Positions 7,569 through 57,733 of a stretch of DNA of 64,000 nucleotides are shown one piece after another (the first letter of the stretch is position 1; every line of letters starts with the position of its first letter). The stretch spans positions 1 to 64,000 of IMG/VR virus record IMGVR_UViG_3300032144_000003; one strand, 5' to 3'. The notes below the pieces were generated by a model. That model ran no database searches. It was not told the DNA's origin and worked only from the letters and a program-made list of their open reading frames with translations. The DNA is from a virus. A program made the translations under genes and the position numbers.

Positions 7569-8204
7569 ATGGCAGTGCAAAGCACGACGTTGGCCGGGAT
7601 TCTGGAGATTCCAGCCGCCTCACTGACGGACGCGCACCTCTCTGGTAATGCCAACATCTCGCGCACCAAGCAGGCCCTCAACTCACAGGACTATTTCGGC
7701 ATCCCGGTGCATCTCTGGCGACAGGTGGCCGCTGGTCATCCTGTGCTGGGGACGGCGGGGTCCACGAATCTGGGGGTCGGGACTGCCGCAGCCGGGGCCA
7801 CCGGAGTAGATGTGCGCACATCCCCATCGAACGGGACGACGATCACCCAGACGGCGATGTTTGAGTTTTATTTGCCGCCGGAATATGCCGCGACGACGAA
7901 CATCTACGCCTCATTCTGGGCGGCGATGAACGTCATCTCGTCGGCGTCCTGCACACTGGACATCACCGCGTACAAGGTGGGGACGGATGGGGCGCACGGA
8001 TCGGACCTGAACTCGACATCCGCCATCGATATCCGCACGGTTACGTATGCCGAGCGAGTCTTCACGATCGACGGTTCCGGACTGTCGCCGGGAGACAAGC
8101 TGGAAATCTACGTGACGGTGGCCGCGACGGACGGCGGCGGCGCAGGGACCGACAAGTACGCCAAGATTGTCAAGACCGGCGTCAAATGTGATTGCCGGGG
8201 ATAA
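7569..8204 (+). CDS. hypothetical structural protein
   Basis: 211-aa ORF between the tube and chaperone genes. Confidence 0.4.
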   Translation: MAVQSTTLAGILEIPAASLTDAHLSGNANISRTKQALNSQDYFGIPVHLWRQVAAGHPVLGTAGSTNLGVGTAAAGATGVDVRTSPSNGTTITQTAMFEFYLPPEYAATTNIYASFWAAMNVISSASCTLDITAYKVGTDGAHGSDLNSTSAIDIRTVTYAERVFTIDGSGLSPGDKLEIYVTVAATDGGGAGTDKYAKIVKTGVKCDCRG

Positions 8205-8240
8205 GCACGGTTTTCAGTTCTCAGGAGCGACACGCACGCA

Positions 8241-8627
8241 ATGCCCATTCATCTGTTTATCGAGGACGGTCAGGTCTACGACGGCTGCATTTCCAATGTG
8301 CAGGGCCATCCGCTGACGCCGCCGCTGACGTTCAAGTTTCGGCCCGCCGACTACATGGACCTCAACCGGCACTATGACGCCGTGGCCAAAGATGAGGCGT
8401 TGGGCAAGCTGCCGGAGAGCGAGAAGGACGCGGCGGCGAATCTGAGACTGATTGCCGAGCGACTCCAGTCATGGAGCGCCGCCGGGCCTCTGAACGTGGA
8501 CCGTCTCCGCAGGCTGAATCCATTCGTGGCGTCACGTCTGTACCGGATCGTGATTGGCAACGATGCGAGCGATCCACTGCCGGACGGAACGACGCCTGAG
8601 ACGCCGGAGAACGCCGCAAAAAACTGA
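8241..8627 (+). CDS. tail assembly chaperone (gpG analogue)
   Basis: It lies immediately upstream of the tape measure and ends ...GCA AAA AAC TGA, with a slippery heptamer in the last codons. Confidence 0.6.
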   Translation: MPIHLFIEDGQVYDGCISNVQGHPLTPPLTFKFRPADYMDLNRHYDAVAKDEALGKLPESEKDAAANLRLIAERLQSWSAAGPLNVDRLRRLNPFVASRLYRIVIGNDASDPLPDGTTPETPENAAKN

Positions 8628-11308: not shown

Positions 11309-11317
11309 TCGAGTCCA

Positions 11318-12082
11318 GTGAAGTACGCGTACTCGACATATACGAGCGACAGCTACGAAGTCCTCAGTTCTCCGATCAGCTACACGGAGCTACTGTCAGG
11401 GACAGGCTTCATGTACGCCGTGGAACTCGTGCACCGGATCAATGGACGCATCATCCGTAGTACGCAGACGGAACTGATCACCCGCATTGACGACCTGTTG
11501 GATGCGTCGCGCGTGCGTGGCGGGAATCTGACCTACCTGACCAGCGACAACATCCCCGTCGGCCTGTCGCTCGACTCCGTGGACACGCTGGGGGGGATTG
11601 GATGCAGCGTCGTTTCACTTCCGCAAGCCATCGCCGGTGAGATGGGGCTGTTCGTCGATTACAGCCTGGAGTTCAACGCCATCATTCCCGTCGGCGCAGC
11701 GGCCAGCAACGGCAATCCAGTGGTGGAGTTCAGCGAAGAGGTCAGCGCCCGCAACCCGCATGGGCTGGGTGAATTCATCATGGTGCCCATCGAGGCTGAC
11801 CGTCCCCAGCGGCATGATACCTATCCGTTCTTATCGTCGTCGTACGTTCAGACCGGAAGAGTCGTCTGGCTGAGACAGGGACCGCCGGAGCCAATCGGAG
11901 TGATTCCACCCCCCTTGAGTCCGGTGGACGTGCACTGGAGCGAAGTCACCATCACGCGGCCTGTGTCCCTCAAGATCGTCAACGGCACGCGGATGTTCTT
12001 CGCGGTCGATTACAGCTACCCGATGGAACTGCGCCAGCCGCTGCCGGGATCGGCATGGCAGCCGCGACTAACGTACCCGTAA
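11318..12082 (+). CDS. putative distal tail protein
   Basis: GTG start. 254 aa, directly after the tape measure. Assignment is by position only. Confidence 0.4.
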   Translation: MKYAYSTYTSDSYEVLSSPISYTELLSGTGFMYAVELVHRINGRIIRSTQTELITRIDDLLDASRVRGGNLTYLTSDNIPVGLSLDSVDTLGGIGCSVVSLPQAIAGEMGLFVDYSLEFNAIIPVGAAASNGNPVVEFSEEVSARNPHGLGEFIMVPIEADRPQRHDTYPFLSSSYVQTGRVVWLRQGPPEPIGVIPPPLSPVDVHWSEVTITRPVSLKIVNGTRMFFAVDYSYPMELRQPLPGSAWQPRLTYP

Positions 12083-25375: not shown

Positions 25376-25600
25376 ATGTGTGTTCCATTGGCATTTATCG
25401 GTGCAGTGTTTTGTCGGTTCCAGATGGCCAATCGCGCGACACGTCACTTGCTGCTTGCGGCGACAAAGCTAGGGCGAGGGCAGTACGAGCGACTGCCCAG
25501 TTACAACGACACTCTCTGGTGCCTGTTTTGCGGCGAGTCTCAAGATCATTTACTGCTCCGCTGCGGACTCTCGCCGCAAGGAAAAAAACCGCATGTATGA
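25376..25600 (+). CDS. possible small protein upstream of the Clp_N gene
   Basis: ATG 25376 (or TTG 25295). The stop overlaps ATG 25593. Support is weak. Confidence 0.2.
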   Translation: MCVPLAFIGAVFCRFQMANRATRHLLLAATKLGRGQYERLPSYNDTLWCLFCGESQDHLLLRCGLSPQGKKPHV

Positions 25601-26552
25601 ACGCTTCACAGGCCGACTCCGCACGGTCATGCAACTGGCCAATCAGGAGGCCCAGCGGTTCCATCACGAATACATCGGCACCGAGCACATCCTGTTAGGG
25701 CTGGTCAAGGAGGGCACGGGCGCCGCGGGACTAATCTTCGCGTCGCGAAACATCGACCTTCAGGACGTGCGCCGTGAAGTCGAGAAGCTCATTCAGGCTG
25801 GCCCTGACCTGAACTTCGCTGGCAAGTTGCCGCAAACGCCGCGAGCCAAGAATGTGATCACCTTTGCGGCGGAAGAAGCCCGCAACCTTAACCACAACTA
25901 CATCGACACGGCTCACCTGCTGCTGGGCCTACTCCGGGAACAGGATGGCATTGGCGGTCACGTGCTGTCCAAGCTCGGTCTGGAATACGGCGAAGTCAAG
26001 GAAATCATTTGTGGCATCATTCACTCGTCAACCACACCATCCATCCAACCAAGGAACCCCATGAACCCCTTCGACCGCTTCGTTTCCGACGTGACCCTGA
26101 CCGCCAACCCCAACGCCTCATCGGCCATCATCTGGGGGCCGCTGCTGACGGACTTCCTGTCCCGGCTGATGGACTGCCTGTTCAGCCGCTTTGGCGGGGG
26201 TGGCACGGCCAATCCCAATGCCCCCGCGATCGATGACGAATGGCCGGAACCACTAGAGGTCGCTGCTGCCGACGATTGGATCAGCAAGGCGGAAGCGCTC
26301 CAGACCCGGCTGCGAAGAATGGAGTCGAACCGCCGCGTGCATTCGGACCAGTGGGGCGGATACAAGCCCGCCGGAGTGCGCCGGGGGATGGCGACGCTGC
26401 GGAGAACGGTGCGAGACAATGGCCAGCGGGCATCAGAGCAGGAAATCCGGCAGCACGTCATCGCTACCTACGACAACGCCAGCGGCATGCGGGTCGAGGA
26501 ACTGGCGGAAGTCCTCAAGAGTGAGAGCGAACGACACGCCGCGACCGCCTGA
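25593..26552 (+). CDS. Clp_N (ClpA/ClpC N-terminal repeat) domain protein lacking AAA+ modules
   Basis: MYERFTGRLRTVMQLANQEAQRFHHEYIGTEHILLGLVKEG plus a second repeat TPRAKNVITFAAEEARNLNHNYIDTAHLLLGLLREQDG. No Walker motifs in the remaining ~170 aa. Confidence 0.75.
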   Translation: MYERFTGRLRTVMQLANQEAQRFHHEYIGTEHILLGLVKEGTGAAGLIFASRNIDLQDVRREVEKLIQAGPDLNFAGKLPQTPRAKNVITFAAEEARNLNHNYIDTAHLLLGLLREQDGIGGHVLSKLGLEYGEVKEIICGIIHSSTTPSIQPRNPMNPFDRFVSDVTLTANPNASSAIIWGPLLTDFLSRLMDCLFSRFGGGGTANPNAPAIDDEWPEPLEVAAADDWISKAEALQTRLRRMESNRRVHSDQWGGYKPAGVRRGMATLRRTVRDNGQRASEQEIRQHVIATYDNASGMRVEELAEVLKSESERHAATA

Positions 26553-37429: not shown

Positions 37430-37929
37430 CTGACGACAGAATCCCGCAGCGGTTTCGGTATAAAAGGAATAACATCGTGCAATGGGGCGTGGCAAGCCCA
37501 TTGCCGGGGTCCGTCGATTGGATTGTTCGTCGGCTATCAGAGAAAGGCTGGAGCGATCAATGCGGCGAGAAAAGAATTAACGTCCTGCTGGAAAGCATAG
37601 GCTGCATCGAGATCAAATGGCTCGACCACGACTACGACTGGTCCGGCAAGCCAACGGACCCTGAGCCGCCGGTGAAGCTGTACAGCGTGGCGGTCACATA
37701 CGAGCGAGTCCTGATGATCGCCGCCGTCAGCGAGCAGGACGCACTGGAGTGTACCGAGAAGTGGTATGAATCGGCGATCACCAAATATGCCGTGCGTTCA
37801 GACACAGTGACCGGCGCGGAACCTATGCCGCCGGGGCCTTTCGATTCTCACGCGGACGACTGCACGGGCAAGGCTGCTCACTACTTCAAGGACGGCGTGT
37901 ACTCACCGCAGGGGGCAACCAATGGCTGA
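37426..37929 (+). CDS. hypothetical protein
   Basis: ATGA-coupled, 167 aa. Confidence 0.4.
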   Translation: MTDDRIPQRFRYKRNNIVQWGVASPLPGSVDWIVRRLSEKGWSDQCGEKRINVLLESIGCIEIKWLDHDYDWSGKPTDPEPPVKLYSVAVTYERVLMIAAVSEQDALECTEKWYESAITKYAVRSDTVTGAEPMPPGPFDSHADDCTGKAAHYFKDGVYSPQGATNG

Positions 37930-38899
37930 GCAGACCAAGATTCAGTGGTGCGATCACACGCTTAACCCTTGGCGTGGATGTTCGCACGTCCATGCTGGTT
38001 GCGACAACTGCTACGCCGAAGCACTGGGCAAGCGATTTCCGCAGACGCTCGGGGCGTGGGGCGACAATGGAACACGCGTCGTCGCTGCCGAGAGCTACTG
38101 GAAGCTGCCAGAGAAGTGGAACCGTCAGGCCGAACAGGTGGGCGTTCGCCGCAAGGTGTTCTGCGCGTCGCTGGCGGACGTGTTCGAGGATTGGTGTGGG
38201 CCGATGCTCGACAATAGGGGACGCGAACTGTTTGTGGATGGAGACGAATGGTTCGCGCCAGGCAAGGATTTCTTTGCCATGAGTCCAGGGGTGACTATGC
38301 ACGACGTGCGGTATCGACTGTTCAGCGTCATTGACGCCACTCCGCATCTTGATTGGCTGCTGGTGACGAAGCGACCAGAGAACATTCGGCGGATGTGGCC
38401 GCTGCTGTTTCCGAATGGGGCTGAGACGCATGGTTGCCCGCATTGCCTGGGCGCGGGATGCAGTGGATGCCACGACGGGGAAACCGCGCACCGTCCCAAC
38501 GTCTGGCTGCTGACCAGCGTGTCCGACCAAGCGACGGCAGACAAGATGATCCCCGACTTGCTCCAGTGCCGCGACCTGTCGCCCGTGCTGGGGATCAGTG
38601 CCGAGCCGCTGCTATCGGAGATTGACCTGTCGCGGTGGCTGCAATTCCAAGGCCCGTCGTGGCGATTCACCAAGGATGGCATCGGGTATCCGCCCCTCGG
38701 CTGGGTCATCATCGGCTGCGAGTCCGGCCCCAACCGCCGCCCAACTCCTGACGGGGCCATCGAGTCCATTGTGGACCAATGCGCCGCCGCCGGAGTGGCC
38801 TGTTTCGTCAAGCAGATCGAGGTTCACGGCAAAGTCACCGGCGACATCGACCAGTTCCCCCAGCGGCTGCAAGTCAGACAGTACCCAGAGGTGAAGTGA
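37922..38899 (+). CDS. phage Gp37/Gp68 family protein (DUF5131)
   Basis: The N-terminus MAEQTKIQWCDHTLNPWRGCSHVHAGCDNCYAEALGKRF matches the family hallmark (IEWT..TWNP..GC...S.GC.NCYA). Confidence 0.75.
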   Translation: MAEQTKIQWCDHTLNPWRGCSHVHAGCDNCYAEALGKRFPQTLGAWGDNGTRVVAAESYWKLPEKWNRQAEQVGVRRKVFCASLADVFEDWCGPMLDNRGRELFVDGDEWFAPGKDFFAMSPGVTMHDVRYRLFSVIDATPHLDWLLVTKRPENIRRMWPLLFPNGAETHGCPHCLGAGCSGCHDGETAHRPNVWLLTSVSDQATADKMIPDLLQCRDLSPVLGISAEPLLSEIDLSRWLQFQGPSWRFTKDGIGYPPLGWVIIGCESGPNRRPTPDGAIESIVDQCAAAGVACFVKQIEVHGKVTGDIDQFPQRLQVRQYPEVK

Positions 38900-45664: not shown

Positions 45665-45951
45665 AGGGCGACATTCTGGAGATCATCGTCAGCGTCGGGG
45701 ACAAGGAACTGCGGATGGGCGCAATGATGCCGGACGATACGCCACTGGATGCGGTGTTCGGGTGCATCAAGGGGGCTGTGGCCGCGACGCTCGGCACGCC
45801 GCTGGAGACTGAGGATGAGGCGGAAGAACGGCAGGTCATCGCGGGCGATTTTCTCAAGCGACTTCGCTGTGCCATCGGGGAGATTTCCCAGGATGACTGG
45901 CGAGTCAATGATGAGCATGTTGCCACGCCAGCACCGGAGTCTGACGCATGA
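45661..45951 (+). CDS. hypothetical protein
   Basis: ATGA-coupled, 96 aa. Confidence 0.35.
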   Translation: MKGDILEIIVSVGDKELRMGAMMPDDTPLDAVFGCIKGAVAATLGTPLETEDEAEERQVIAGDFLKRLRCAIGEISQDDWRVNDEHVATPAPESDA

Positions 45952-47129
45952 CCCCCACCCTACTCACCACTGCCCCCGCCGGTTCCCCGGACTGGCTCGC
46001 CGCCCGTCGGACTGGGATCGGTGCCAGCGAATGCGCCGCCGCCTGTACCGGCTGGTACGGCACGGGGGACAACGCCGTCTATCGGCAGTTCGATCCCCGC
46101 CGCCAGCCGCGCGACCTGTACCACCTGCTGCGGGGCGAGATCGAACCGACCGAGGACAACGACTACATGGCCTGGGGCCGGTTCATGGAGCCGTCCGTGG
46201 TGCAGTTCTACGAATGGAAGCACGGCGTCAAGCTCCAGTACCCGCTGGGAGTCTATCAGCATCCGCAGTATGACTGGATGGTCGCGTCGCCAGATGCCGC
46301 GTTTGATAACCGGCGGGGCATGGAGATCAAGCACACGGGATACCAGAAGATCAAGGCCATCGAGGAATGCGGGCTGGATGCCGTCGTGCCGGAGTACGTT
46401 CTGCAATGCACGCATCAGATGGCTGTCATGGGATGGGAGTCCGTGGAACTGGTGTTCCTGGCCGAACGGCAGTTGTATCCGTTCACGATTGAGCGGAACG
46501 AGCGGCTGATTGACCTGATTATTGAGCGGGAGTCGGAGTTCTGGAGTAGAGTGGAGCGGGGTGATCCCCCGCCCATCCAGCCGGAGCATGAGAACGTATC
46601 CGTCTCATTGCGGCACGCCTACCCAGAGATGGAGTCCCATGCGGTTCGGCTGTCGCCGGTGGCCGTGGCGGCATGGCGCGAGGCGCAGACCCTGAAAGAG
46701 CAGATTGCCGCCCTGGAGCGTCGCCGGGGCCGGTCTGAGGCAATTGTCGCTGCCGAGATTGGAGCAGCGTCAGCGGGCATTCTGGGGGACGGACGGGCCG
46801 TCAGGCGGAAGATCAACCGGGAATCGGTCAGCCTGCGGGAAACGAGTGACGCTGGGTTGTCTGTGGTCGATTCGGCGGACGGACCGCAGGAACGGCTGGA
46901 AACGCTGCGGCGATACTTGTCACAGCACGGATTCATGGGGACCAGCACGACTCCGGACCGGGCGGAATTCGTCCACGTGCGGAGCGGGCAGCGGGTCGCG
47001 GCGCTGCTGGCCGGGGAGCATGAGAACGGAGCGTTGGAAAAATCTGGAGAAACTTTGATCCACTTGGGATCATCCAGCGTTCATCCATTAGACGCGGCGA
47101 AACTGATTCTCGACACGATGGGAGTGTGA
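45948..47129 (+). CDS. YqaJ-type (lambda Exo-like) recombination exonuclease with C-terminal extension
   Basis: SPDWLAARRTGIGASECAAA..., MAWGRFMEPSVVQFYE..., ASPDAAF...GMEIKH (PD-(D/E)xK). Confidence 0.7.
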   Translation: MTPTLLTTAPAGSPDWLAARRTGIGASECAAACTGWYGTGDNAVYRQFDPRRQPRDLYHLLRGEIEPTEDNDYMAWGRFMEPSVVQFYEWKHGVKLQYPLGVYQHPQYDWMVASPDAAFDNRRGMEIKHTGYQKIKAIEECGLDAVVPEYVLQCTHQMAVMGWESVELVFLAERQLYPFTIERNERLIDLIIERESEFWSRVERGDPPPIQPEHENVSVSLRHAYPEMESHAVRLSPVAVAAWREAQTLKEQIAALERRRGRSEAIVAAEIGAASAGILGDGRAVRRKINRESVSLRETSDAGLSVVDSADGPQERLETLRRYLSQHGFMGTSTTPDRAEFVHVRSGQRVAALLAGEHENGALEKSGETLIHLGSSSVHPLDAAKLILDTMGV

Positions 47130-47132
47130 GCG

Positions 47133-47630
47133 ATGGGGCTGGATATCACGGCATACGGCAAGCTGATCCCAATTCCCGGAGAGCGTGTCGGCGATTGGAT
47201 CGCAGAGGCGCGCGACGTGGTTATTCTGACGCAGAAAATCAACACATCATCTGTGTTCCCAGGTCGAACCGAGGGGCTGGAGCCTCCGGGGACGTATTGG
47301 TGGCGCGCGGCTAGAAAGTTCAAGGCAGGCAGTTACACCGGATACAGAGAGTGGCGGCATTCGCTGTCCTTGTTGGCTGGATACAAGTCTCTGGAAGACT
47401 GCTGGGAGAACCATACCAGCGGTCCATTCTGGGAACTGATCAACTTCACGGACAGTGATGGCGTCATCGGCCCGGTGGTCAGTCGCAAGCTGCTCGCAGA
47501 TTTTCTGGAATATCGACCGAAGCTGGATGCGTGCGAACACCCCGACAAGGAGTGGTTCGCGGAACTGTACGACGAATGGCAGCGGGCATTTGAGGTGGGC
47601 TCTGATAGCGGCGCGGTGGTGTTTCACTAA
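47133..47630 (+). CDS. hypothetical protein
   Basis: 165-aa ORF. Confidence 0.4.
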   Translation: MGLDITAYGKLIPIPGERVGDWIAEARDVVILTQKINTSSVFPGRTEGLEPPGTYWWRAARKFKAGSYTGYREWRHSLSLLAGYKSLEDCWENHTSGPFWELINFTDSDGVIGPVVSRKLLADFLEYRPKLDACEHPDKEWFAELYDEWQRAFEVGSDSGAVVFH

Positions 47631-47652
47631 ACCATGAGAACGGAGCGGAGCA

Positions 47653-47775
47653 ATGACGGAACTCTTGGCGTTGAATCACGCAATCCTGGGCCTGCTGTCG
47701 TTTGGCGGCGGCGTGGCCATCGGTCTGACACTGGCGATTGTCTGCGGACACTTGCTTCTGGATGAGGATGGGTGA
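47653..47775 (+). CDS. possible 40-aa single-TM peptide (below ORF-track cutoff)
   Basis: Read by hand: MTELLALNHAILGLLSFGGGVAIGLTLAIVCGHLLLDEDG. Confidence 0.25.
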   Translation: MTELLALNHAILGLLSFGGGVAIGLTLAIVCGHLLLDEDG

Positions 47776-47779
47776 TGAC

Positions 47780-48076
47780 ATGACAGACACGATCAACGAT
47801 TGCGACGAAGTGGAACCAGACGTTCAGCAGCGAGCGGACACGCTGATGGCGACCATGCGAGTGATTGTCACGAACATCGAGGGCGTCGCTGGTCCTCAAG
47901 CCGCTCGCGACTACCTGTGCGGAGTCATCCGCCGCATGACACGCTGTCCGGGCTGCGAGCGAATGGAGGTCGCCCTTGGCGGATGGCTCGGATCAGTGGA
48001 CGCAGACCGCCTGTTGAGACACATCGAATCCTATGCCATCGACGCGATGGATCGTGGAGGATACTTTGATACGTGA
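47780..48076 (+). CDS. hypothetical protein
   Basis: 98 aa. Other in-frame starts at 47738, 47762 and 47768. Confidence 0.35.
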   Translation: MTDTINDCDEVEPDVQQRADTLMATMRVIVTNIEGVAGPQAARDYLCGVIRRMTRCPGCERMEVALGGWLGSVDADRLLRHIESYAIDAMDRGGYFDT

Positions 48077-48085
48077 GAAGCGAAC

Positions 48086-49018
48086 ATGAAAAAGAAAACA
48101 ATTAAAACTGTTATCGCGAAGAAGATGAGTGAATGGTGGAAGACGATCGACGATCCGCGAGTGCAGGAGTTGGCGGCCTCATCGACGATTGTTACCGGCG
48201 GGTGCATTGCAAGCATGCTGCTGCGAGAGCGGGTAAACGACTACGATATTTATCTGCGCACAAAAGAGGCGGCCAAAGCGCTCGCTGAATACTACGTGAA
48301 GAGATTCGAAATCAAGGACAAGGAAGGAATCCCTTGTGGGATCTACGTGCACGACGAGAACGATAGAGTCAAAATCGTCGTGAAGTCGGCTGGAATTGCC
48401 AGCGAAAATGGCACGGCCCGTCCCTACGAGTATTTCGAGTCTTCGGAAGAGGGGCAGGCGGGTGAGTATGTGCATGAAGTGATGCAGGACCCTGGGGCAA
48501 TCCAAGATGCAGCCGACGCGATTAAAGATACTGAGGTGGCCGATGACGGACTGCCGTATCGCCCCGTGTTCCTGTCCACGAATGCCATCACGCTCTCCAA
48601 GGGCGTTCAAATTGTGATCCGGTTCTACGGGGAACCGGATGAAATCCACAAGAACTATGACTTTGTGCATTGCACGAATTACTGGACAAGCTGGGACGGC
48701 GAGTTGGTGCTCAGGCAGCCTGCGCTCGAATCTCTACTATCCAAAGAGTTGCAATACGTGGGCAGTAAGTATCCGATCTGTTCGTTGTTTCGGCTGCGGA
48801 AGTTTATTAAGCGGAATTGGACCGTTAATGCTGGCCAGATTTTGAAAATTGCATTGCAGGTCAGCGAGTTGGACTTGAAGGACCACAACGTACTGGAAGA
48901 TCAACTGATCGGGGTTGACGTGGCTTATTTCATCGAGGTGGTCAACAAGGTGAGAGAGCATGACCCAGAGAAGGTGAATGCTGCGTATCTTGTGGAAATA
49001 CTTGATCGAATGTTTTAG
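48086..49018 (+). CDS. hypothetical protein with Pol-beta-type nucleotidyltransferase-like N-terminal motif, lower GC than neighbours
   Basis: IVTGGCIASMLLRERVNDYDIYL resembles GGxVRDxLLxxxxxDxD of CCA-adding and poly(A) polymerase heads. The gene looks visibly more AT-rich. Confidence 0.35.
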   Translation: MKKKTIKTVIAKKMSEWWKTIDDPRVQELAASSTIVTGGCIASMLLRERVNDYDIYLRTKEAAKALAEYYVKRFEIKDKEGIPCGIYVHDENDRVKIVVKSAGIASENGTARPYEYFESSEEGQAGEYVHEVMQDPGAIQDAADAIKDTEVADDGLPYRPVFLSTNAITLSKGVQIVIRFYGEPDEIHKNYDFVHCTNYWTSWDGELVLRQPALESLLSKELQYVGSKYPICSLFRLRKFIKRNWTVNAGQILKIALQVSELDLKDHNVLEDQLIGVDVAYFIEVVNKVREHDPEKVNAAYLVEILDRMF

Positions 49019-49579
49019 GCCCGCCGGTGCCAGAAACCGGCCACGTGCCTGCCCGTGTCACGAGAGAAGACGGCCACTCATCTGAGAGACAGGCAAAAAT
49101 CCCCCTGTGTGAGGTGAGCAGGAATCGAGCGACCGAAGCCCAATGGCAGGGCGGGCAGTCCTGAAGGGTCATCCGCAGTCGGCACGCTGGTCGTCGCCGT
49201 GCCATCCAACGGGAGACTGAGATGTAGACCTGACGAGAGTGTGAAGGAATGAGACCGGACTACAGCAGGGATAGACCTGCCGTGGGGAACCCGCAAGAAA
49301 GTTCCACGTAAAAGCACCGTTGCGGGCTGGCGGATGATGAATCCGCCAGAACATGGATCGGCGGCGTGGACAAGTGACACGCAGGCAACTGTCCTCGGCT
49401 CACACTGGGGGCAGCTACTTGAGGCGGCGAGCCGGGAGTGATGGGCGTTCAGGAGCAGTGCTCGACACTGACGAAGAACCCGATAACCGGGCCGAAATAA
49501 TTCACCGCGAATGACCTCAGCAGGTGCAAGTCCTGTCCGATCCACTGGACGTCAACAACCCCCAACAAGGAGTCAAAGC
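49019..49579 (+). ncRNA. long non-coding gap with multiple stable hairpins (candidate structured RNA or cis element)
   Basis: No + strand ORF of 60 aa or more. The - strand ORFs are Arg/Ser/Leu-rich shadow ORFs. Hairpins at 49023-41, 49181-203 and 49327-49 (9-bp stem). Confidence 0.3.
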
Positions 49580-51787
49580 ATGGCCACTGAAATCGCACAA
49601 CCTGGCACTGAACGTCGCCCGCAAGCCAATCTCCCGTCCATTCGCCCGGAACGTCTTCCATACCACCCTGCATTGCAGGAGAAGTTCAACATCGGGAGAT
49701 CAGAATGGCGGGCATTGGTCGAGGCCGTATTTCCTCTGGCACAGTCTATCGATTCGGTGATCCTGGCACTGTCGTACTGCAAGGCCCGCCGGTTGGACCC
49801 TTTCAAGCGAGTCGTGCACATCGTGCCGATCTGGGATTCCAAGCAGCGGTGCACTGTGGACACGATCTGGCCTGGCATCGGAGAACTGAGAACGACTGCC
49901 ATGCGGACGAAAGAGTACGCCGGACGCGACAAAACGGAGTTCGGTCCGGATGTCACGCGGCGGGTCGGCACGCTGGAAATCACATTTCCTGAGTGGGCAC
50001 AGGTCACGGTGTATCGGATGGTGAACGGGCAGCGAGTGGCGTTCGCTGGTCCGCAGGTGTACTGGCTGGAGACGTACGCAGAGCGGGGCGGCAAAGACCA
50101 CGACAGGACTCCCAACAGCATGTGGGCGAAGCGAACGCGGGGGCAACTCGACAAATGCTTTGATGAGCACACCGAGGTACTAACAACCGAAGGATTCCAG
50201 AGATTTTCGGAAGTGACCGGACTGATTATGCAGGTCACGGACCACGGCCTAGAGCCAACCAACGCCGTTCCGTTCGCTCGCGAATACGACGGCCCGATGG
50301 TGACATGCGACGGAAACGTGCTGAACTTCAGTGTCACGCCGAATCACGACATGGTCACCACGAATGGAAAGGTAGAGGCGGCAGAAGTTGTCGCCAAAAG
50401 CACAAGCACCGGGGGATTCGATATCCCGCTGGTAATTGATGGGTCTGGCCCGGACGCCAACTTTACTGACAGGCAGATCATGGTGGCCGCAGCACTCGCC
50501 TGCGATGGGTATCGACATGGAGGTGAACTGTGCATTGCCGTCAGCAGGAAGCGGAAGGTTCAATTCCTTCGGCAGATTGGAATGCACAAGTCAATGCACG
50601 TGCGGCAGTGTGCTGGGGAGGACACAGTCTCGTCATCAGGGCGGGTCATCACAACGACGGCCAATAAGATGGTGTTCGGCTACCGCAGGGACGTTGCTGG
50701 TGATTTATTGATTGAAGGAACGAAGCTGCTCGACAGCGCGCAGGTGGTTCGCCTGAGCAGACGACAGGCAAGGCTGCTTGTTGATTCAATGCTCCAGTGT
50801 GATGGGCACGAATCCCGAACGGCCAGACGATTCTTTGCCTCGTCGCGGTCGATCCTGGCCGCCTTCGAGGTTGCAGCCTGCGTTGCGGGGTACGCGATCA
50901 GTTACCGACGAGTACGGAAATCTGACATTGGCGGCAAGAACTACTACGTGACGGTGAGCACAAAGACGACGGCCCGTACCATGAGAGCAAGTCGTAGCCA
51001 ATCCAGGCTGAAAGGTGGTCTACGGCACACGCTCAATGAGTCAGGCATTGTCTGGTGCTGCACGGTGCCGACTGGACAAATCGTCGTGCGACGTAAAGGG
51101 CTGTCGATGATCTGCGGCAATTGCGCCGAGGCCGCCGCCCTGCGAGCGGCTTTCCCAGAAGAGATCGGAAACGAGTACATCGCAGAAGAGGCGCATGCGC
51201 CGTCCGGATCAGAGGCGAGACAGGTACAGTCCATCGTCAAGGTGTCCGGAGCATCGGCCACGGAGAACCTTGCACAAATGATGCAGGGTGAAGCCAGAGA
51301 AGAGTCCCAGGTTGACCAAGAGGCAGTAGGACCGCATGATCCGGATGTCAACGCCGACGAACCCCTCGAATCCGCCGACGTTCTGGAGATCATCAGCGAC
51401 CCGCCCGCGGACCAGACGCAGTCCAGCCAGCCTCAAACGGACGAACCAGCGGCGGAAACGAAGCCCGCCCGCAAGCCCGCCAAGCAGCAGAAAACACTGA
51501 CGGATGCGCCGCCGCAAACGCAGTCCGCCAGTCCGCCACCTGTCGATCCCCGCGAATGGGCGAAGTACGGCAGTGTCGGAACGGACAACCCGCAGCGGTA
51601 CTGCAACCGAATCAAGATTGCCGTCGGCAAAGCCAAGACTGCCGAGCATCTGGCAATTCTCAACGAGGCGCTGAACACCGCCTGTCAGGTCGGAGATGTG
51701 ACGGCGGAGCACGCGGACCCCGTGTACGCCGCCATCGACGCCGCCCATGCTGGTCTGGAAATGGAATCGTCCCAGGCCGCGTCCTGA
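49580..51787 (+). CDS. recT: RecT-family single-strand annealing protein interrupted by an intein
   Basis: AAGGAG precedes ATG 49580. RecT-like CKARRLDPFKRVVHIVPIWD ... NSMWAKRTRGQLDK / CAEAAALRAAFPEE flanks a 322-aa insert. Confidence 0.8.
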   Translation: MATEIAQPGTERRPQANLPSIRPERLPYHPALQEKFNIGRSEWRALVEAVFPLAQSIDSVILALSYCKARRLDPFKRVVHIVPIWDSKQRCTVDTIWPGIGELRTTAMRTKEYAGRDKTEFGPDVTRRVGTLEITFPEWAQVTVYRMVNGQRVAFAGPQVYWLETYAERGGKDHDRTPNSMWAKRTRGQLDKCFDEHTEVLTTEGFQRFSEVTGLIMQVTDHGLEPTNAVPFAREYDGPMVTCDGNVLNFSVTPNHDMVTTNGKVEAAEVVAKSTSTGGFDIPLVIDGSGPDANFTDRQIMVAAALACDGYRHGGELCIAVSRKRKVQFLRQIGMHKSMHVRQCAGEDTVSSSGRVITTTANKMVFGYRRDVAGDLLIEGTKLLDSAQVVRLSRRQARLLVDSMLQCDGHESRTARRFFASSRSILAAFEVAACVAGYAISYRRVRKSDIGGKNYYVTVSTKTTARTMRASRSQSRLKGGLRHTLNESGIVWCCTVPTGQIVVRRKGLSMICGNCAEAAALRAAFPEEIGNEYIAEEAHAPSGSEARQVQSIVKVSGASATENLAQMMQGEAREESQVDQEAVGPHDPDVNADEPLESADVLEIISDPPADQTQSSQPQTDEPAAETKPARKPAKQQKTLTDAPPQTQSASPPPVDPREWAKYGSVGTDNPQRYCNRIKIAVGKAKTAEHLAILNEALNTACQVGDVTAEHADPVYAAIDAAHAGLEMESSQAAS
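50156..51121 (+). mobile_element. intein with LAGLIDADG-type homing endonuclease domain
   Basis: Block A CFDEHTEVLTTEG, block B VTPNHDMVT, two LAGLIDADG-like motifs (IMVAAALACDGY; LLVDSMLQCDGH), blocks F/G VWCCTVPTGQIVVRRKGLSMICGN followed by +1 Cys. Confidence 0.75.
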
Positions 51788-51835
51788 AAAATCTGAAAAC
51801 TCTGTGATCCACCGATTAGAACCGAGCGTTCTATT
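51785..51835 (+). promoter_or_regulatory. conserved promoter-like element, copy C
   Basis: TGAAAAATCTGAAAACTCTG TGATCC(51805-10) N16 CGTTCTATT(51827-35), 58 nt upstream of ATG 51893. Confidence 0.5.
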
Positions 51836-51892
51836 CGCAGCCACGGGGACTCGCCCCGGACAACAACCGCGACACCAGCAAGGGTTACCACA

Positions 51893-53215
51893 ATGACAGC
51901 AGCGACAGCGACTCCCAAGACCGCCCCCAAGGCCAATCACCTCAAGTCTGCCGAGGTCCACAACTTCAAGGGGCTGCATCAGGCCAAGGTGACGTTTCCT
52001 GGCAGCGGGGTGATCATCATTGGCGGTCGCAATGGCAGCGGCAAGACGTCGTTCACGGATGCCATCTGGGCCGCGTTGGGAGGTGCATCCGCACTGGACG
52101 ACGTGCCGGTGATGCAGGGGCAGGAAGAGGCGACGATCCGGCTGGAGATTGATACCGATCCCCCGTTGATTGTGGAGCGGACGATCAAGTCCTCCGGCGG
52201 TTCCCCAGCGCTCAAGGTCTACACGGAGATGCCTGGCCCGACGGGCAAGCCGATCAAGTCTAACCTGTCCGGTCCGCAGTCCGTGCTCAATACGCTGGTG
52301 GGCAAGGTCGCGTTCGACCCACTGGAGTTCATCCGCCTCAAGCCCGCCGATCAGGTCAAGCTGCTGGCGGAACTGGTGGGGGTCGATGTGTCGAGGCTGG
52401 ACGGCGAGATTGCCGCTCTGATGCAGGAACGCCAGTCGGTCAAGAAAGAGCGGGACAAGCTGTCCGCCGTGGTCGAGGGGATGCCGCACCATACCGACGC
52501 CCCATCAGAGATCGTCAGTACCGAGGCACTCGTCAAGGAACTGTCCCATGCGGAAGCGGCGAACACCAAGCGGGCGCAGTTGGAACACCGCGCCAAAGAG
52601 CAGACGACGCAGAAAGCGAGTCTGGAGAAGCGGGAGCAGGAACTGCTGGCACAACTGGAGAAAGTGCGGTTCGATATTCAGGCGGCGGCGCAGGCCGTAA
52701 CGGAATTCTCAGCGCAGGCGGAACAATCTCCGGTCATCGACGTGGAGCCGATCAAGCAACGGATCAGCATGGCGTCCAGCATCAACCGCAAGGTGGAGGA
52801 CAACCGGCAGCGGGCCACGTCGCAACAGGCACTGGAGAACAAGGACACGGAAGTCACGGTGTTGACCAACGAGATCGAAGCCAAGCGCCAGGCCCGGCTC
52901 AAGATGATGGAGGAAGCGGAGTGGCCTGTGCCGGGGCTGGGGTTCAGCGACGCGGGCGTGACGTACAACGATCTGCCGATCGGCCAGATTTGCAGCGCCG
53001 AGAAGATCAAAGTGTCCACCGCCATCGGGCTGGGACAGAATCCGCAACTCAAGCTGATGTTCATCCACGATGGATCGCTGCTGGACGATGAGGGTCTGGC
53101 GATCATCGAGGAACTGGCGGTCGCGCACGATGCCCAGGTGTTCGTGGAGCGAGTCGGGACCGGTGACGAAGGGGCGATCATCATCGAGGAAGGGTACGTC
53201 AGGCAGGCGGTGTGA
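51893..53215 (+). CDS. SMC/SbcC/RecF-like AAA ATPase
   Basis: VHNFKGLHQAKVTFPGSGVIIIGGRNGSGKTS (Walker A), a central coiled coil, and C-terminal KLMFIHDGSLLDDEG (Walker B). Confidence 0.7.
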   Translation: MTAATATPKTAPKANHLKSAEVHNFKGLHQAKVTFPGSGVIIIGGRNGSGKTSFTDAIWAALGGASALDDVPVMQGQEEATIRLEIDTDPPLIVERTIKSSGGSPALKVYTEMPGPTGKPIKSNLSGPQSVLNTLVGKVAFDPLEFIRLKPADQVKLLAELVGVDVSRLDGEIAALMQERQSVKKERDKLSAVVEGMPHHTDAPSEIVSTEALVKELSHAEAANTKRAQLEHRAKEQTTQKASLEKREQELLAQLEKVRFDIQAAAQAVTEFSAQAEQSPVIDVEPIKQRISMASSINRKVEDNRQRATSQQALENKDTEVTVLTNEIEAKRQARLKMMEEAEWPVPGLGFSDAGVTYNDLPIGQICSAEKIKVSTAIGLGQNPQLKLMFIHDGSLLDDEGLAIIEELAVAHDAQVFVERVGTGDEGAIIIEEGYVRQAV

Positions 53216-53476: not shown

Positions 53477-54073
53477 ATGGTCACGAGCAAGGAGAAGATG
53501 GTGGGACTCAAGCAGTTGTCGAAGGACGGGAACAGCAACGTGTTCCGCCGGGTGCAACTGGCGGCAGAGATTCTGGCGGACAGGGAGTTCGTCTCGTCGG
53601 AGTGGGGGGATGAGTTCCGGGCGTGGTCGGCGATGGAGGATGAGTGTTTCTCGATGCTCAAAGGACTCATGCCGTTCGCCCGGTTGCTCCAGATTCACCA
53701 GCGGTTTCCGACGGAGCGGCATTGGCTGGAGTACAACTACAACCTGGCCGTGATGGACGACCTGTGCTGTCAGGCGGAAGCGGAAGAGCGCGCCAAGGCC
53801 GGTGAGGTCCAACCTGTGGCGACGCGCCGCCGGGCGACGCTGGAACAGGTCGAGAAGCTGGAGGCGGAGAACCAGGCACTGGCGGTGCAGGTGCAGGAAC
53901 TCAGGCAGAAGGTCACGCCGGACGATCTCGACCGGGTCGAGGTGCTGGAGCAGGAGAACGCCCGGCTGCATCAGGAGCTTGGAAAACTGCGTCAGGAGAA
54001 CCTGGAACTGCGCCGTCAGGTTCAGAAACTCCGCGTGGGATCGTCGCGAACTCCGGAGCCTGTCGCGTGTTAG
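53477..54073 (+). CDS. coiled-coil protein directly upstream of CRISPR array 1
   Basis: AGGAGA lies 7 nt upstream. It has an N-terminal ~100-aa domain and a Leu-zipper-like C-terminal half (LEQVEKLEAENQALAVQVQELRQK...). The stop is 10 nt before the first repeat. Confidence 0.45.
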   Translation: MVTSKEKMVGLKQLSKDGNSNVFRRVQLAAEILADREFVSSEWGDEFRAWSAMEDECFSMLKGLMPFARLLQIHQRFPTERHWLEYNYNLAVMDDLCCQAEAEERAKAGEVQPVATRRRATLEQVEKLEAENQALAVQVQELRQKVTPDDLDRVEVLEQENARLHQELGKLRQENLELRRQVQKLRVGSSRTPEPVAC

Positions 54074-54082: not shown

Positions 54083-54313
54083 GTTGTAAGGCCACCGGAA
54101 ATGAAGTGTGTGCGCAAGTGGTCGAGTCCCTCGTCCGTCGACTTGCGGTTGTAAGGCCACCGGAAATGAAGTGTGTGCGCAAGGCTCGAATTCTTCCGTG
54201 GTGATGGCCCGGCGCTGTAAGGCCACCGGAAATGAAGTGTGTGCGCAAGTTCACAGGGCCATGCAACTGGCCAATATGGGGTGTAACAGACCGTGAAGCG
54301 AAGTGTGTGCAAG
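54083..54313 (+). CRISPR. mini-CRISPR array 1 (3 repeats + degenerate terminal repeat, 3 spacers)
   Basis: 36-nt repeats at 54083-118, 54148-183 and 54214-249 (GTTGTAAGGCCACCGGAAATGAAGTGTGTGCGCAAG). Degenerate copy at 54280-313. Unique spacers of 29/30/30 nt. Confidence 0.8.
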
Positions 54314-54326
54314 AAAGGTCAAAAGA

Positions 54327-55637
54327 ATGCCCAAAGCAGTGATCGAAATTAAGCTCGGTGCGTGCCTCACCAGCCGCACGGAAGCGTTTCATCGTGAACT
54401 GATGAAACTCGCCGTCGGATGTCGGCAGATTCGTAACGGGGCGATGTCGGCCTGGCTGCAATGGATCGACGCCAATCCAGACTATCAGCCACAACAACGC
54501 AAGGACCGCAATGGGAAACTCAAGGTCACAAAAGATGGCACGCCAATTATGGAGTCGGCGTGGCTCCCGCAGCACGTCCAGAAGCTGCTGTATGATTCCG
54601 GACGCAAGGCGAACATCGCCGTTAGTTCCCACGTCGCATCACACTGTGTGAATGCGGTGATGCAGTATCTCGCCGGAGACCTGCCGTACAACCAGATCGA
54701 ACGCGGCGCGCCACGCTGCAAGGTCTGGCAGGCCATCCGTGACAGGCACATCAACGCCCCGTCCTACAGTGCGCTGGTGATCCCCGTCCCCAAGGCCAAT
54801 AGCGACCTGTGTTACAACGGCCAGACGACGAGCCGCAACGCCCTGCTGAAAGAGTGTGGGAAATCGTCGGCTGTGGTTTCCATTCCAATGTGGTCGCGCG
54901 AGGCGGGCCGGGAGAAGACAACCGCTATCTGCCGGATCGAGACGCGGCAACTCTCGCGCGGCAACCGGCAACTGCTGCAACGCATCGCACGCGACAAGGA
55001 CATGCACAGGGACAGCCAGATTGTCCTCAAGGATGGCCGCTGGCAGTTCCAACTCACGTATCAGGTGGAGCAGGAACTCTACCAGTTCGATCCGGCGCGG
55101 CAGGCCCGGCTGGTGATCTGCGACGGCACATCCGGCACGCCGTTCCGCCTGGAACTGCCCGGTGTCCCCGACTGGTCGATCTGTCGTGAGGAATCCAAGT
55201 TGCTGGTCAATGAACTGGCCCGCCTCGAAACCCGCCGCAAGACGATTGGCAAGTTCTACCGTGAGGGTCGCGGCCACGGTCACGGACGGCGGAAGGCGAT
55301 GGCCAACGCGAAGCGGATTGGAGCGCACGAAACCGGCCTGCGGCTCAACTTCATGCGGAAGACGATTGCGGAAGTGGTCAAGGCCGTGACCCGCTTCGAG
55401 TGCGGCACGCTGATTGTCGAGTCACCGAATCTGTTCGTGAAGAACTGCCGGAACAGGCCCACGTGGTTCAGCGACCGGGGTGTCACGTTCGCCTGGCATC
55501 AGGTGGTCAACACGTTGGGGCAGAAGTTGCCGGGCGTGCAGGTCGATCAACTCAGAATAGGGAAGGAAGAATGGCTCGGTTCAATTGCGAATGCGGAAAC
55601 TGCAAACGCCCCATGCGAGTCAGCAAGTCCCGCCTGA
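54327..55637 (+). CDS. TnpB/Cas12f-like RuvC-domain CRISPR effector candidate (N-terminal ~420 aa of the fold)
   Basis: SD AAAGG lies 8 nt upstream. TnpB-like order of elements: IVLKDGRWQFQLTYQVE, LVICDGTSG (RuvC-I Asp), RRKTIGKF...RRKAMANAKR, NFMRKTIAEVVKAVTRFECGTLIVESPNL (RuvC-II Glu). Flanked by arrays on both sides. Confidence 0.6.
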   Translation: MPKAVIEIKLGACLTSRTEAFHRELMKLAVGCRQIRNGAMSAWLQWIDANPDYQPQQRKDRNGKLKVTKDGTPIMESAWLPQHVQKLLYDSGRKANIAVSSHVASHCVNAVMQYLAGDLPYNQIERGAPRCKVWQAIRDRHINAPSYSALVIPVPKANSDLCYNGQTTSRNALLKECGKSSAVVSIPMWSREAGREKTTAICRIETRQLSRGNRQLLQRIARDKDMHRDSQIVLKDGRWQFQLTYQVEQELYQFDPARQARLVICDGTSGTPFRLELPGVPDWSICREESKLLVNELARLETRRKTIGKFYREGRGHGHGRRKAMANAKRIGAHETGLRLNFMRKTIAEVVKAVTRFECGTLIVESPNLFVKNCRNRPTWFSDRGVTFAWHQVVNTLGQKLPGVQVDQLRIGKEEWLGSIANAETANAPCESASPA

Positions 55638-55909
55638 AGGTGATTGCACGGGACAGGATCGTGCCGTTGTGCGAGACGTGCCGTCCATTCCGGAGCTACT
55701 TGATTGGACTCACAGAAGTCGAGCGGTTGCAGGCTGCAACATTGGCCGGGACCGATCGCAGAAAGGAAGAGGTGACATGTCAGGGACTTACGAACGACGG
55801 GTTGATACGGGATAGGGCGAAAGGTGGCCAGCATTCCGGACCTCTCGCAGGCGGACGCCTAACGTGTGTGACAGACAGGCGATGCATTGCGGGCGGTGAC
55901 AATACCTGA
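55571..55909 (+). CDS. zinc-ribbon module (TnpB/Cas12 C-terminal-like) in the -1 frame relative to the effector ORF
   Basis: GGAAGGAAG precedes ATG 55571. MARFNCECGNCKRPMRVSKSRLKVIARDRIVPLCETC. It overlaps the effector ORF end by 67 nt and runs into the first repeat of array 2. Confidence 0.45.
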   Translation: MARFNCECGNCKRPMRVSKSRLKVIARDRIVPLCETCRPFRSYLIGLTEVERLQAATLAGTDRRKEEVTCQGLTNDGLIRDRAKGGQHSGPLAGGRLTCVTDRRCIAGGDNT

Positions 55910-56145
55910 GAAAGCGAAGTGTGTGTGCAAGTTGATGCCTATTATCGCCGCCGGGGAATACCGGCGTGTGACAATACCTGAGAAAGCGAAGTGTGTGTGC
56001 AAGTTGATCTGGTTGTTCGCATCAATGCGGCCTCGGGTGGTGACAATACCTGAGAAAGCGAAGTGTGTGTGCAAGATCACCGCCGAACCCAACGGCACCC
56101 CGGATAGGTTGCGACAACGGGTGAACGAAAGAAAGTGTGTGCAAC
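55896..56145 (+). CRISPR. mini-CRISPR array 2 (3 identical repeats + degenerate terminal repeat, 3 spacers)
   Basis: 36-nt repeats at 55896-931, 55968-56003 and 56040-075 (GTGACAATACCTGAGAAAGCGAAGTGTGTGTGCAAG). Degenerate copy at 56111-145. Unique spacers of 36/36/35 nt. Confidence 0.8.
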
Positions 56146-56495
56146 GCTGGCTATACCACCAACTGACCGCCCTCGCGACAGCCATCGCCGTCGTGGCGTA
56201 CCTGTCGCTGCGGTTCATTCGCCGGGAACTGCTCCGACTGGAGCGGGACAGCCAGCACCGGCAAGAACAACTGGACGAGGCGCAGCGACGCATGAGCGAC
56301 CCTGAACAACGCGACACGATCCCCTGCGAACCGGGTGAGGTCTGCTGCATGTGCAAGGCTCCCGCCACCAAGATCACCTATTCCAAACACCACACGGACG
56401 TCCGGATCAAGTTCGTCATGCTCTGCGACGCCTGCGCCCGCGAAGCAGACGAGATGCATCTGGCGTATTTTGAGCACCAACCCCCAACGGAGTGA
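56139..56495 (+). CDS. small TM + zinc-ribbon protein downstream of array 2
   Basis: GTG 56139 (or 56121). TM LTALATAIAVVAYLSL. CCMCK...CDAC. The upstream part of the track ORF is array-encoded and is not counted. Confidence 0.35.
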   Translation: MQRWLYHQLTALATAIAVVAYLSLRFIRRELLRLERDSQHRQEQLDEAQRRMSDPEQRDTIPCEPGEVCCMCKAPATKITYSKHHTDVRIKFVMLCDACAREADEMHLAYFEHQPPTE

Positions 56496-57175: not shown

Positions 57176-57733
57176 ATGGAATCGACCATGCTGTTCATCG
57201 GCATCGACCCCGGCAAGACGGGCGGCATTGCGGTCATTGATTACGAATCAGTGATCGTGGCCGTGCTGCATTCCGAGAAGGCGACCGAGCGTGACATGTT
57301 CGCGTTCTTCGACGACCTCGATGAACGGTTCGGCACCGTGCCGCGACGGGCTGTGATTGAGCAGGTCGCATCGTCTCCGCAGATGGGAGTTGTGTCGGCG
57401 TTCGCGTTTGGGCAGTCGTTCGGCTTCCTGCGCGGGCTGCTGACAGGGACAGAGACACCATTCGAACTGGCGAGACCTCAAAAATGGCAAAAGGCAATGG
57501 GCTGCCTAAGCAAGGGTGACAAGAACGTGACGAAGGCAGCGGCACAGCGACTGTGGCCACAGTGGAAGATCACACACGCCAATGCGGACGCGTTATTGAT
57601 TGCGGAGTTTTGCCGTCGCCAGTGGTGGAATTCGGCCACATTCGAGAAATGGATTGCCGCCGGAGACGAGCAGCCGCACGCCGTCGTGACCATCACTCCC
57701 CTGTCCATCAACTCCGGAGCTTCCTCCCCATGA
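57176..57733 (+). CDS. ruvC: RuvC-like Holliday junction resolvase
   Basis: MLFIGIDPGKTGGIAVID ... VIEQV ... HANADALLIAEF. Confidence 0.75.
   Translation: MESTMLFIGIDPGKTGGIAVIDYESVIVAVLHSEKATERDMFAFFDDLDERFGTVPRRAVIEQVASSPQMGVVSAFAFGQSFGFLRGLLTGTETPFELARPQKWQKAMGCLSKGDKNVTKAAAQRLWPQWKITHANADALLIAEFCRRQWWNSATFEKWIAAGDEQPHAVVTITPLSINSGASSP

Follow-up and report, generated by a model that had tools for sequence, protein, structure and literature searches.

A stretch of 64,000 nucleotides from a virus (positions 1 to 64,000 of the IMG/VR record IMGVR_UViG_3300032144_000003, hereafter referred to as the window) carries a compact CRISPR locus. With high confidence, we consider this locus to combine a nuclease-dead, Cas12f-like effector, here called dCas12f, with genuine guide arrays and 2 conserved accessory proteins. 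The dCas12f-like gene, which is C-terminally truncated and was assigned by PADLOC, by profile searches against PDB and by AlphaFold2 modeling with Foldseek, is located at positions 54327..55637 on the plus strand and encodes a protein of 436 amino acids. Taken as a whole, the module may represent a phage-encoded, interference-incompetent derivative of type V-F that would bind DNA under the guidance of CRISPR RNAs (crRNAs) without cleaving it, thereby silencing its targets, a reading to which we assign a probability of about 55%. An earlier note on this DNA had described a phage-carried effector-plus-guides locus of type V-like character, without adaptation genes and with a very small effector, and this description was borne out, in the form of a type V-F-like locus, by the homology, the fold and the genuine arrays. 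The same note had read the effector as an intact nuclease and had missed the accessory genes, and on these 2 points our conclusions differ.

A Cas12f-like effector in a phage genome

The open reading frame (ORF) at positions 54327-55637 on the plus strand, to which the earlier note had drawn attention, was recovered with a length of 436 amino acids, and the region surrounding it (positions 54221-55924) was 100% identical in an independent Logan assembly, L016. Only 2 families were reported for the protein by PADLOC, namely Cas12u3 with an E value of 1.5e-6 (with residues 17-368 of the protein aligned to positions 15-305 of a model of 398 positions) and Cas12f with an E value of 2e-5. A family profile constructed from the effector and 7 homologs (alignment A1) matched the Cas12f chains in PDB with E values of 1.4e-14 to 1e-9, including SpCas12f1 (9i8y), OsCas12f (9nzq), AsCas12f and Un1Cas12f1, and the match covered the WED, REC, RuvC-I and RuvC-II segments as well as the conserved GHGR motif of the bridge helix. 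The match to the sigmaE-type dCas12f structure 9n9c was far weaker than that to active Cas12f (1e-5 versus 1e-14), which suggests that the family has been inactivated independently.

The RuvC-like fold that had been proposed for the protein was recovered in an AlphaFold2 model with a predicted local distance difference test (pLDDT) score of 80. The best Foldseek match of this model was AsCas12f (7wju), with an E value of 2.3e-16 and a template modeling (TM) score of 0.54 to 0.60, and the top matches were all to Cas12f, dCas12f or TnpB. The dCas12f structure 9n9c was matched with an E value of 1e-10, and none of the best 50 PDB matches was to a Cas12m structure. A Pfam search of the effector yielded no match, and the NCBIfam TnpB model reached an E value of only 0.17.

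In an exhaustive search with a hidden Markov model (HMM), 792 family members passed a threshold of E<1e-3 and 158 one of E<1e-30, and almost all had lengths between 370 and 550 amino acids. The family is deeply diverged, with sequence identities of 28% to 35%, and the repeats have diverged alongside. The possibility that the gene is a pseudogene remnant was ruled out by this large conserved family with full-length matches.

Loss of the nuclease site

Although the fold is that of Cas12f, the nuclease site is not. The earlier note had placed the catalytic aspartate of RuvC-I in the motif LVICDGTSG, but the profile alignment to solved Cas12f structures showed that this residue is located 3 positions downstream of the catalytic site. 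The aspartate in the GVDLG motif of Cas12f aligns instead with profile position 278, which is a valine in the effector and T, E, V, W, R, M, L or S, but never a conserved aspartate, in the 151 family representatives. The RuvC-II glutamate, which had likewise been predicted, is indeed present in the effector at profile position 380, yet the effector is among only 5 of the 151 representatives with a glutamate at this site, whereas 87 have an arginine. We also observed a Y-R-E-P motif at profile positions 379-382, in which the glutamate is found in 122 and the proline in 147 of the 151 representatives; this glutamate is shifted by one residue from the RuvC-II site of Cas12f.

In every family member, the chain ends soon after the strand next to RuvC-II on its C-terminal side, and the median length of this tail is 27 residues. 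Neither an in-frame Zn-ribbon nor a RuvC-III motif was identified in any of the family members (at least 151 cluster representatives), and no RuvC-III motif was found in any frame at the window locus. That the protein is a complete RuvC nuclease of the TnpB/Cas12f kind is therefore not supported, since the RuvC-I aspartate has been lost and the chain ends before the Zn-ribbon and RuvC-III. Judged from these alignments, the family is a disarmed, truncated Cas12f. Because the RuvC-I aspartate is lost, the RuvC-II glutamate mostly lost and RuvC-III absent, we infer that the protein acts by binding rather than by cutting.

CRISPR arrays and repeat units

The effector gene is flanked by 2 mini-arrays, both on the plus strand and co-oriented with it, and the repeat coordinates given for them previously were confirmed. 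Mini-array 1 (54083..54315) contains 3 full repeats of 36 nucleotides (54083-54118, 54148-54183 and 54214-54249) and a degenerate copy (54280-54313), separated by unique spacers of 29, 30 and 30 nucleotides (54119-54147, 54184-54213 and 54250-54279). The repeats at 54083 and 54148 are identical, and the copy at 54214, which begins with GCTG, has a single mismatch. Mini-array 2 (55896..56145) contains 3 identical 36-nucleotide repeats (55896-55931, 55968-56003 and 56040-56075) and a degenerate copy (56111-56145), with unique spacers of 36, 36 and 35 nucleotides (55932-55967, 56004-56039 and 56076-56110). Array 1 begins 10 nucleotides past the stop codon of the gene upstream and ends 13 nucleotides before the start codon of the dCas12f gene. 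Both are CRISPR arrays by the criterion of at least 3 near-identical direct repeats of 23 to 50 nucleotides with unique spacers of similar length, and they cannot be attributed to chance since 3 perfect, regularly spaced 36-mers occur twice. The repeat termini, GTTGCA...TGCAAG, also look V-F-like when set against the repeat of Un1Cas12f1.

The repeats of the 2 arrays have a 16-nucleotide core at their 3' ends in common, GAAGTGTGTG(C/T)GCAAG, and differ in the 20 nucleotides at their 5' ends. More generally, only about 15 nucleotides at the 3' end are conserved, as seen between arrays 1 and 2 in the window, within locus L006 and among the units in locus L002. This pattern indicates that the segment, located directly upstream of each spacer, is the functionally relevant part of the repeat, and it fits with a type V crRNA, in which a repeat-derived 5' handle is followed by a 3' guide.

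The arrays near the homologs vary in number and content, with 11 repeats in L001, 15 in L012 and 5 in L006, and in these 3 loci they are also co-oriented with the effector gene. The content differs entirely among the distant relatives, and no close array-bearing relative of the window phage was present in the comparison. In L012, one spacer of the 15-repeat array is present twice (5705-5741 and 5849-5885). Instead of full repeat-spacer units of 72 nucleotides, L002 and L004 contain half-period units, in which a core motif of 10 to 15 nucleotides recurs every 34 to 38 nucleotides; in L002 this core is 15 nucleotides long, GGTGAATAGGGGAAC, and recurs every 36 to 38 nucleotides. Clusters of the short core motif are located between the genes of the module at positions 9646-9969, 11276-11504 and 12284-12476 in L002, and at positions 80-158, 1044-1315 and 2793-2820 in L004. 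In both L001 (11375-11390) and L002 (11276-11290), the dCas12f stop codon is overlapped by a repeat-handle copy, such that transcripts reaching the end of the gene would run directly into a guide unit.

Two conserved accessory proteins

Two conserved genes of the module were missed in the earlier reading. The first encodes a small Zn-ribbon protein (ZnR) of 112 amino acids and is located at positions 55571..55909 on the plus strand, where it was identified with an HMM built from ZnR ORFs in relatives. Read in the -1 frame, the gene shares 67 nucleotides with the 3' end of the effector gene, and its stop codon falls within the first of the array 2 repeats. The gene has an ATG codon of its own, which is preceded by GGAAGGAAG. 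The HMM constructed from the ORFs in L001, L004 and L002 matched the window ORF with an E value of 1.9e-8 and its equivalent in L012 with 1.7e-5, and these were the 2 best among 2484 six-frame segments, with the next at 0.014. The Zn-ribbon protein that recurs in the module is about 50 residues in size, with an invariant C..C...C..CR pattern and the consensus LPCxxCGxPVxxSxxRYL...PLCxxCRPYxxxL (alignment A6), and downstream of the second CxxC (CxxCRPY) this consensus contains no acidic motif resembling RuvC-III.

The ribbon, described as CxCxxC...CxxC, had been taken to be a part of the effector ORF; it is instead encoded by this separate, overlapping gene. A frameshift or assembly error that splits effector and ribbon was rejected, since the independent assembly is identical, no homolog has an in-frame ribbon and the ribbon gene is free-standing elsewhere in the module in L001, L002, L004 and L021. 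No canonical slippery heptamer was seen either. The ZnR gene overlaps the 3' end of the effector gene also in L012, in the same arrangement as in the window, whereas a homologous small ORF is located immediately upstream of the partner gene in L001, L004 and L002. In L021 the ZnR homolog directly follows the partner gene, which in this locus encodes a closer homolog of the window protein, 75% identical across roughly one half of its sequence.

A C-terminal motif, G.GKRGHxxAPLAT, was fused to the dCas12f tail in about 10 of the 151 representatives, whereas in L012 the ZnR protein carries it at the C-terminus (E 3e-8), which links the 2 proteins by fusion or fission. A resemblance to the GH..APLA motif was noted by eye in the window ZnR ORF but was not significant. 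Directly after array 2, a small ORF at positions 56163-56495 encodes a hydrophobic helix at its N-terminus together with a CxxC-(22)-CxxC motif. Its likeness to ZnR is weak (blastp E 0.11), and it may be either a paralog or unrelated.

The second accessory gene, here called the partner gene, is located upstream of array 1 at positions 53477..54073 on the plus strand and encodes 198 amino acids. Homologs of the partner, matched by blastp with E values of 1e-9 to 1e-27, adjoin the effector gene in L001, L002, L004, L007 (where it is partial), L008 and L012. The AlphaFold2 model of the protein (pLDDT 82) consists of an all-alpha N-terminal domain and a long C-terminal coiled coil, and no Foldseek match to this fold was obtained in PDB or BFVD. 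The only sequence profile matches were to coiled coils of the leucine-zipper or basic leucine-zipper (bZIP) type, at E values of about 1e-3 to 1e-4 and below the curated cut-offs, and nothing beyond coiled-coil noise was obtained from Pfam, PHROGs, a PDB profile search or Foldseek searches of PDB and BFVD. The N-terminal domain is therefore predicted, on the basis of the model, to have a novel fold.

Module order across loci

A search for additional loci identified one further phage (L012-L015) and none from the GTDB genomes. L012 is a catalogued viral genome of 37.7 kb in IMG/VR, and the same phage was assembled from 3 samples (L012-L014), in which the arrays are identical. In the window, the order of the elements is partner, array 1, dCas12f, ZnR and array 2. 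In L012, the partner gene is followed by the dCas12f gene, the start of which overlaps the partner stop codon, and then by ZnR and the 15-repeat array; the overlaps between partner and effector and between effector and ZnR suggest translational coupling. L001 contains the 11-repeat array, ZnR, the partner, dCas12f and a lone handle at the stop codon. The order is units, dCas12f, units, ZnR, partner and units in L002, and ZnR, partner, units, dCas12f and units in L004, while L006 contains a ZnR-like ORF, 5 repeats and dCas12f. That the gene order is permuted with guide units interleaved marks these elements as a functional module. It was also noted that L001, a contig of 126 kb, carries an unrelated, canonical TnpB gene at positions 5260-6564, at a distance of 3.4 kb on the upstream side of the module; its Pfam domains are HTH_OrfB_IS605, OrfB_IS605 and a Zn-ribbon.

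Guides and a partial spacer match

All searches for spacer targets gave results that were negative or at chance level. The third spacer of array 1 has a partial match in the window at positions 25618..25647 on the plus strand, in which 24 of 30 nucleotides are identical and 16 of these (25628-25643) form an exact core; a match of 16 nucleotides was reached by 12 of 3000 shuffled spacer sets. The site corresponds to codons 9 to 18, near the 5' end, of a phage gene at positions 25593-26552 that encodes 2 Clp_N domains (Pfam E 3.6e-30), the N-terminal domain of the ClpA/B/C chaperones. The mismatches are non-synonymous and located on the repeat-proximal (seed) side, a placement that makes a clp homolog of the host or of a rival phage a more likely target than the phage's own copy. 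The Clp_N site at 25618-25647 is thus probably homologous to the actual target but distinct from it, and a clpC/Clp_N gene carrying TTCACAGGGCCATGCAACTGGCCAATATGG may be a candidate for the latter.

A scan against Rfam yielded no match to the window locus and no omega-RNA-like scaffold. The sole candidate anti-repeat in any of the loci was observed in L006 at positions 674-688, CTGGCGTCACCTGTT, which pairs with the repeat handle at 14 of 15 positions and is located about 220 nucleotides upstream of the array, in a stretch of 600 nucleotides without a convincing ORF.

Phage context

The phage nature of the neighborhood, which had been noted before, is supported by genes for TerL, a neck protein, a RecT-like annealing protein, a YqaJ exonuclease, an SbcC-like ATPase, a RuvC resolvase and DnaB. 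The absence of cas1, cas2 and cas4 was also upheld, in that none was seen among the PADLOC matches listed, which represent the best 25 of 81 families for 150 window ORFs; ORFs shorter than about 90 amino acids were not scanned. The GC content of the locus equals that of its flanks, and no tRNA genes were found in the window.

The module is located within a recombination cluster, with the YqaJ, RecT-like and SbcC-like (phrog_1499) ATPase genes at positions 45948-53215 on one side and the RuvC resolvase gene at 57176-57733 on the other. In L012, the module adjoins a gene for a RecE/YqaJ-like exonuclease (7505-8536). No transposase was identified with Pfam or PHROGs among the larger neighboring genes in the window, where linkage to TnsB/C/TniQ or MuA/MuB was not observed, and the called genes near the homologs included no transposition genes other than the TnpB gene in L001. 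An association with Mu-like elements or CRISPR-associated transposons (CAST) was ruled out, the neighbors being recombination and replication genes. The window also encodes a DUF5131 (phage Gp37/Gp68-like) protein at positions 37922-38899, and several other ORFs encode DNA methyltransferases (PADLOC, best E 3e-74).

Proposed mechanism and alternative explanations

In the mechanism that we propose, the operon transcript would be processed to crRNAs in which the handle of about 15 nucleotides from the 3' end of the repeat is followed by the downstream spacer. These crRNAs would be loaded onto dCas12f, which probably acts as a dimer as Cas12f does, and the complex would bind complementary DNA without cutting it. 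The zipper and Zn-ribbon proteins may stabilize the bound complex or couple binding to an output, the likeliest of which would be that, in the course of infection, genes of the host or of competing mobile elements are transcriptionally silenced or occluded. The module would then serve as a natural viral form of CRISPR interference (CRISPRi), by analogy with Cas12m. Binding without cleavage has precedents within type V in both Cas12m and dCas12f (PMC11013384, PMC13472631).

Several observations weigh against silencing by a guided DNA binder. No protospacers for the spacers of the window, L012 and L001 were found among GenBank phages (with the locus and the arrays of L012 and L001 as BLAST queries), IMG/VR, JGI metagenomes or GTDB genomes, in scans that covered few spacers and exact matches only, and both the target class and silencing are therefore putative. 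Cas12f nucleases need a trans-activating CRISPR RNA (tracrRNA), and neither RNAduplex nor a G:U-aware scan identified a tracrRNA or anti-repeat (at least 14 of 16 pairs) at 52.5-57.5 kb outside the arrays in the window. No sigma-70-like promoter was found at the locus and the repeats lacked a stable hairpin in a structure check; expression and crRNA processing of the module are predictions. The identical arrays in L012-L014 give no sign of ongoing spacer turnover, and the accessory proteins could point to an output other than repression.

A broader version, which we put forward only tentatively, is that dCas12f, a zipper adaptor of novel fold and the detached ZnR constitute a three-protein programmable DNA binder with its own arrays that would reprogram transcription in the host or in rivals. 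Its output may be silencing, recruitment mediated by the partner, or R-loops that feed the neighboring recombination genes, and it would amount to a natural viral counterpart of both CRISPRi and CRISPR activation (CRISPRa), arisen by an exaptation of Cas12f independent of dCas12f-sigmaE. Recruitment in the style of dCas12f-sigmaE, for which there is a precedent (PMC13472631), would have the dCas12f-crRNA complex position the partner and ZnR, with the partner recruiting or redirecting another factor or RNA polymerase. A plain roadblock would hardly account for 2 dedicated accessory proteins that co-evolve, and in the partner a leucine zipper comes after a basic stretch, with weak profile matches of the bZIP type. 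Yet these matches (E about 1e-3 to 1e-4) are at the level of coiled-coil noise and below the Pfam cut-offs, the partner has no homology to sigma factors, helix-turn-helix (HTH) proteins or RNA polymerase-binding proteins, and no guide matches the phage's own 64 kb except for the imperfect one, which makes us regard recruitment as unlikely. More doubtful still is an anti-CRISPR decoy, in which the dead Cas12f and the repeat RNAs would sequester the tracrRNA or crRNAs of a V-F system in the host or poison its Cas12f dimers. Inactivated Cas9 and repeat-RNA anti-CRISPRs encoded by phages have been documented (PMC11656645), a dead subunit could be dominant-negative given that Cas12f works as a dimer, and no phage-encoded tracrRNA was found in the window. 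A decoy, however, would need neither up to 15 distinct spacers nor 2 accessory proteins, no V-F system of the host could be identified, and a large, deeply diverged family with co-diverging repeats fits with a self-contained guide system.

The position of the window module amid recombination genes, and that of the L012 module beside a RecE/YqaJ-like exonuclease gene, might be taken to indicate that dCas12f aids recombination or homing by forming R-loops that feed the adjacent YqaJ/RecE exonuclease, RecT, SbcC-like ATPase and RuvC resolvase. We consider this highly improbable, since L001, L002 and L004 lack such neighbors, no transposase or integrase is linked to the module and clustering of early genes suffices as an explanation. 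Least probable of all is that the protein is an active, hypercompact RuvC nuclease, TnpB/Cas12f-like and perhaps completed by the ZnR ORF, that cleaves DNA of rivals or the host. The fold is Cas12f-like, the effector keeps the RuvC-II glutamate and has an aspartate 3 residues past the RuvC-I position, and a Zn-ribbon protein is encoded next door. Against this, the RuvC-I column contains no conserved aspartate and the RuvC-II column mostly arginine in the relatives, ZnR lacks the aspartate motif of RuvC-III, all homologs end before RuvC-III, and the TnpB/OrfB models in Pfam and NCBIfam do not match, such that the alignments have largely refuted it already.

Comparison with known systems

The V-F Cas12f nucleases (AsCas12f, SpCas12f1, OsCas12f and Un1Cas12f1/Cas14a) are the best matches to the phage effector in both sequence and structure, with a similar size and repeats of 36 to 38 nucleotides, and V-F Cas12f is the ancestor of the dCas12f-like family. 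The phage-borne system differs from them in lacking the RuvC-I aspartate, the in-chain Zn-ribbon (TNB), RuvC-III and the adaptation genes, in that no tracrRNA was detected in the searched region, and in the addition of 2 conserved proteins. A full-text literature search retrieved no description of a phage dCas12f with zipper and ZnR partners. The family may be among the uncharacterized phage type V families reportedly listed by Al-Shayeb et al. in 2022. It may also be placed among the uncharacterized V-U branches (PMC10691335).

In the dCas12f proteins of Bacteroidota, a C-terminal truncation removes part of the RuvC site, and the proteins bind without cutting (Hoffmann et al., Nature 2026, PMC13472631; structures 9n9c and 9n9m). 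Like these, the phage effector is a nuclease-dead Cas12f with a C-terminal truncation, and one Bacteroidota cluster retains CRISPR arrays and has been proposed to function as a transcriptional repressor (PMC13472631). The dCas12f-sigmaE systems, however, are chromosomal and use chimeric single guide RNAs, whereas the guides of the phage module are encoded in arrays in a phage context, and an rpoE or HTH partner is replaced by the zipper and ZnR proteins (no sigma or HTH matches in Pfam). Cas12m silences by binding only, lacks adaptation genes and resides on mobile elements (PMC11013384, PMC11656645), and would provide the best functional analogy for the phage module. It belongs to a different type V lineage, is larger, is found mainly on plasmids and is not known to depend on obligatory accessory proteins.

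Cas12k (in the V-K CAST systems) and TldR are likewise RuvC-inactivated relatives of TnpB/Cas12 that are used as RNA-guided DNA binders, but no Tn7 or Mu transposition genes were found near the phage module, which uses arrays where TldR uses an omega-RNA. Virus-borne type V nucleases include CasPhi/Cas12j, Cas-lambda, the Cas12r of Thermus phages and the Cas12p "hacker" (bioRxiv 10.64898/2026.04.20.719267; 10.1101/2025.01.20.633832). As in these systems, the phage module lacks adaptation genes, has small arrays and presumably has a role in conflicts between elements; they have an active RuvC and are 560 to 800 amino acids long, whereas the phage dCas12f is dead, contains 436 amino acids and is accompanied by 2 accessory proteins.

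A natural dCas12 of 436 amino acids with a handle of 15 nucleotides and guides of about 20 nucleotides would offer CRISPRi and base-editing tools a scaffold of very small size, and the detached ZnR and the zipper partner raise the question of what role the lost C-terminal parts of Cas12f had and how an output is coupled to binding. If the interpretation as a non-cleaving silencer is correct, RNA-guided control of genes without cleavage would be used not only by cells and plasmids but also by viruses, together with accessory proteins of uncharacterized fold, and Cas12f would have been disarmed and repurposed in a further, apparently independent case. As predicted from its sequence, the phage dCas12f module would thus join dCas12f, Cas12m, Cas12k and TldR among the nuclease-dead type V systems, with a presumed function in the binding rather than the cutting of DNA.

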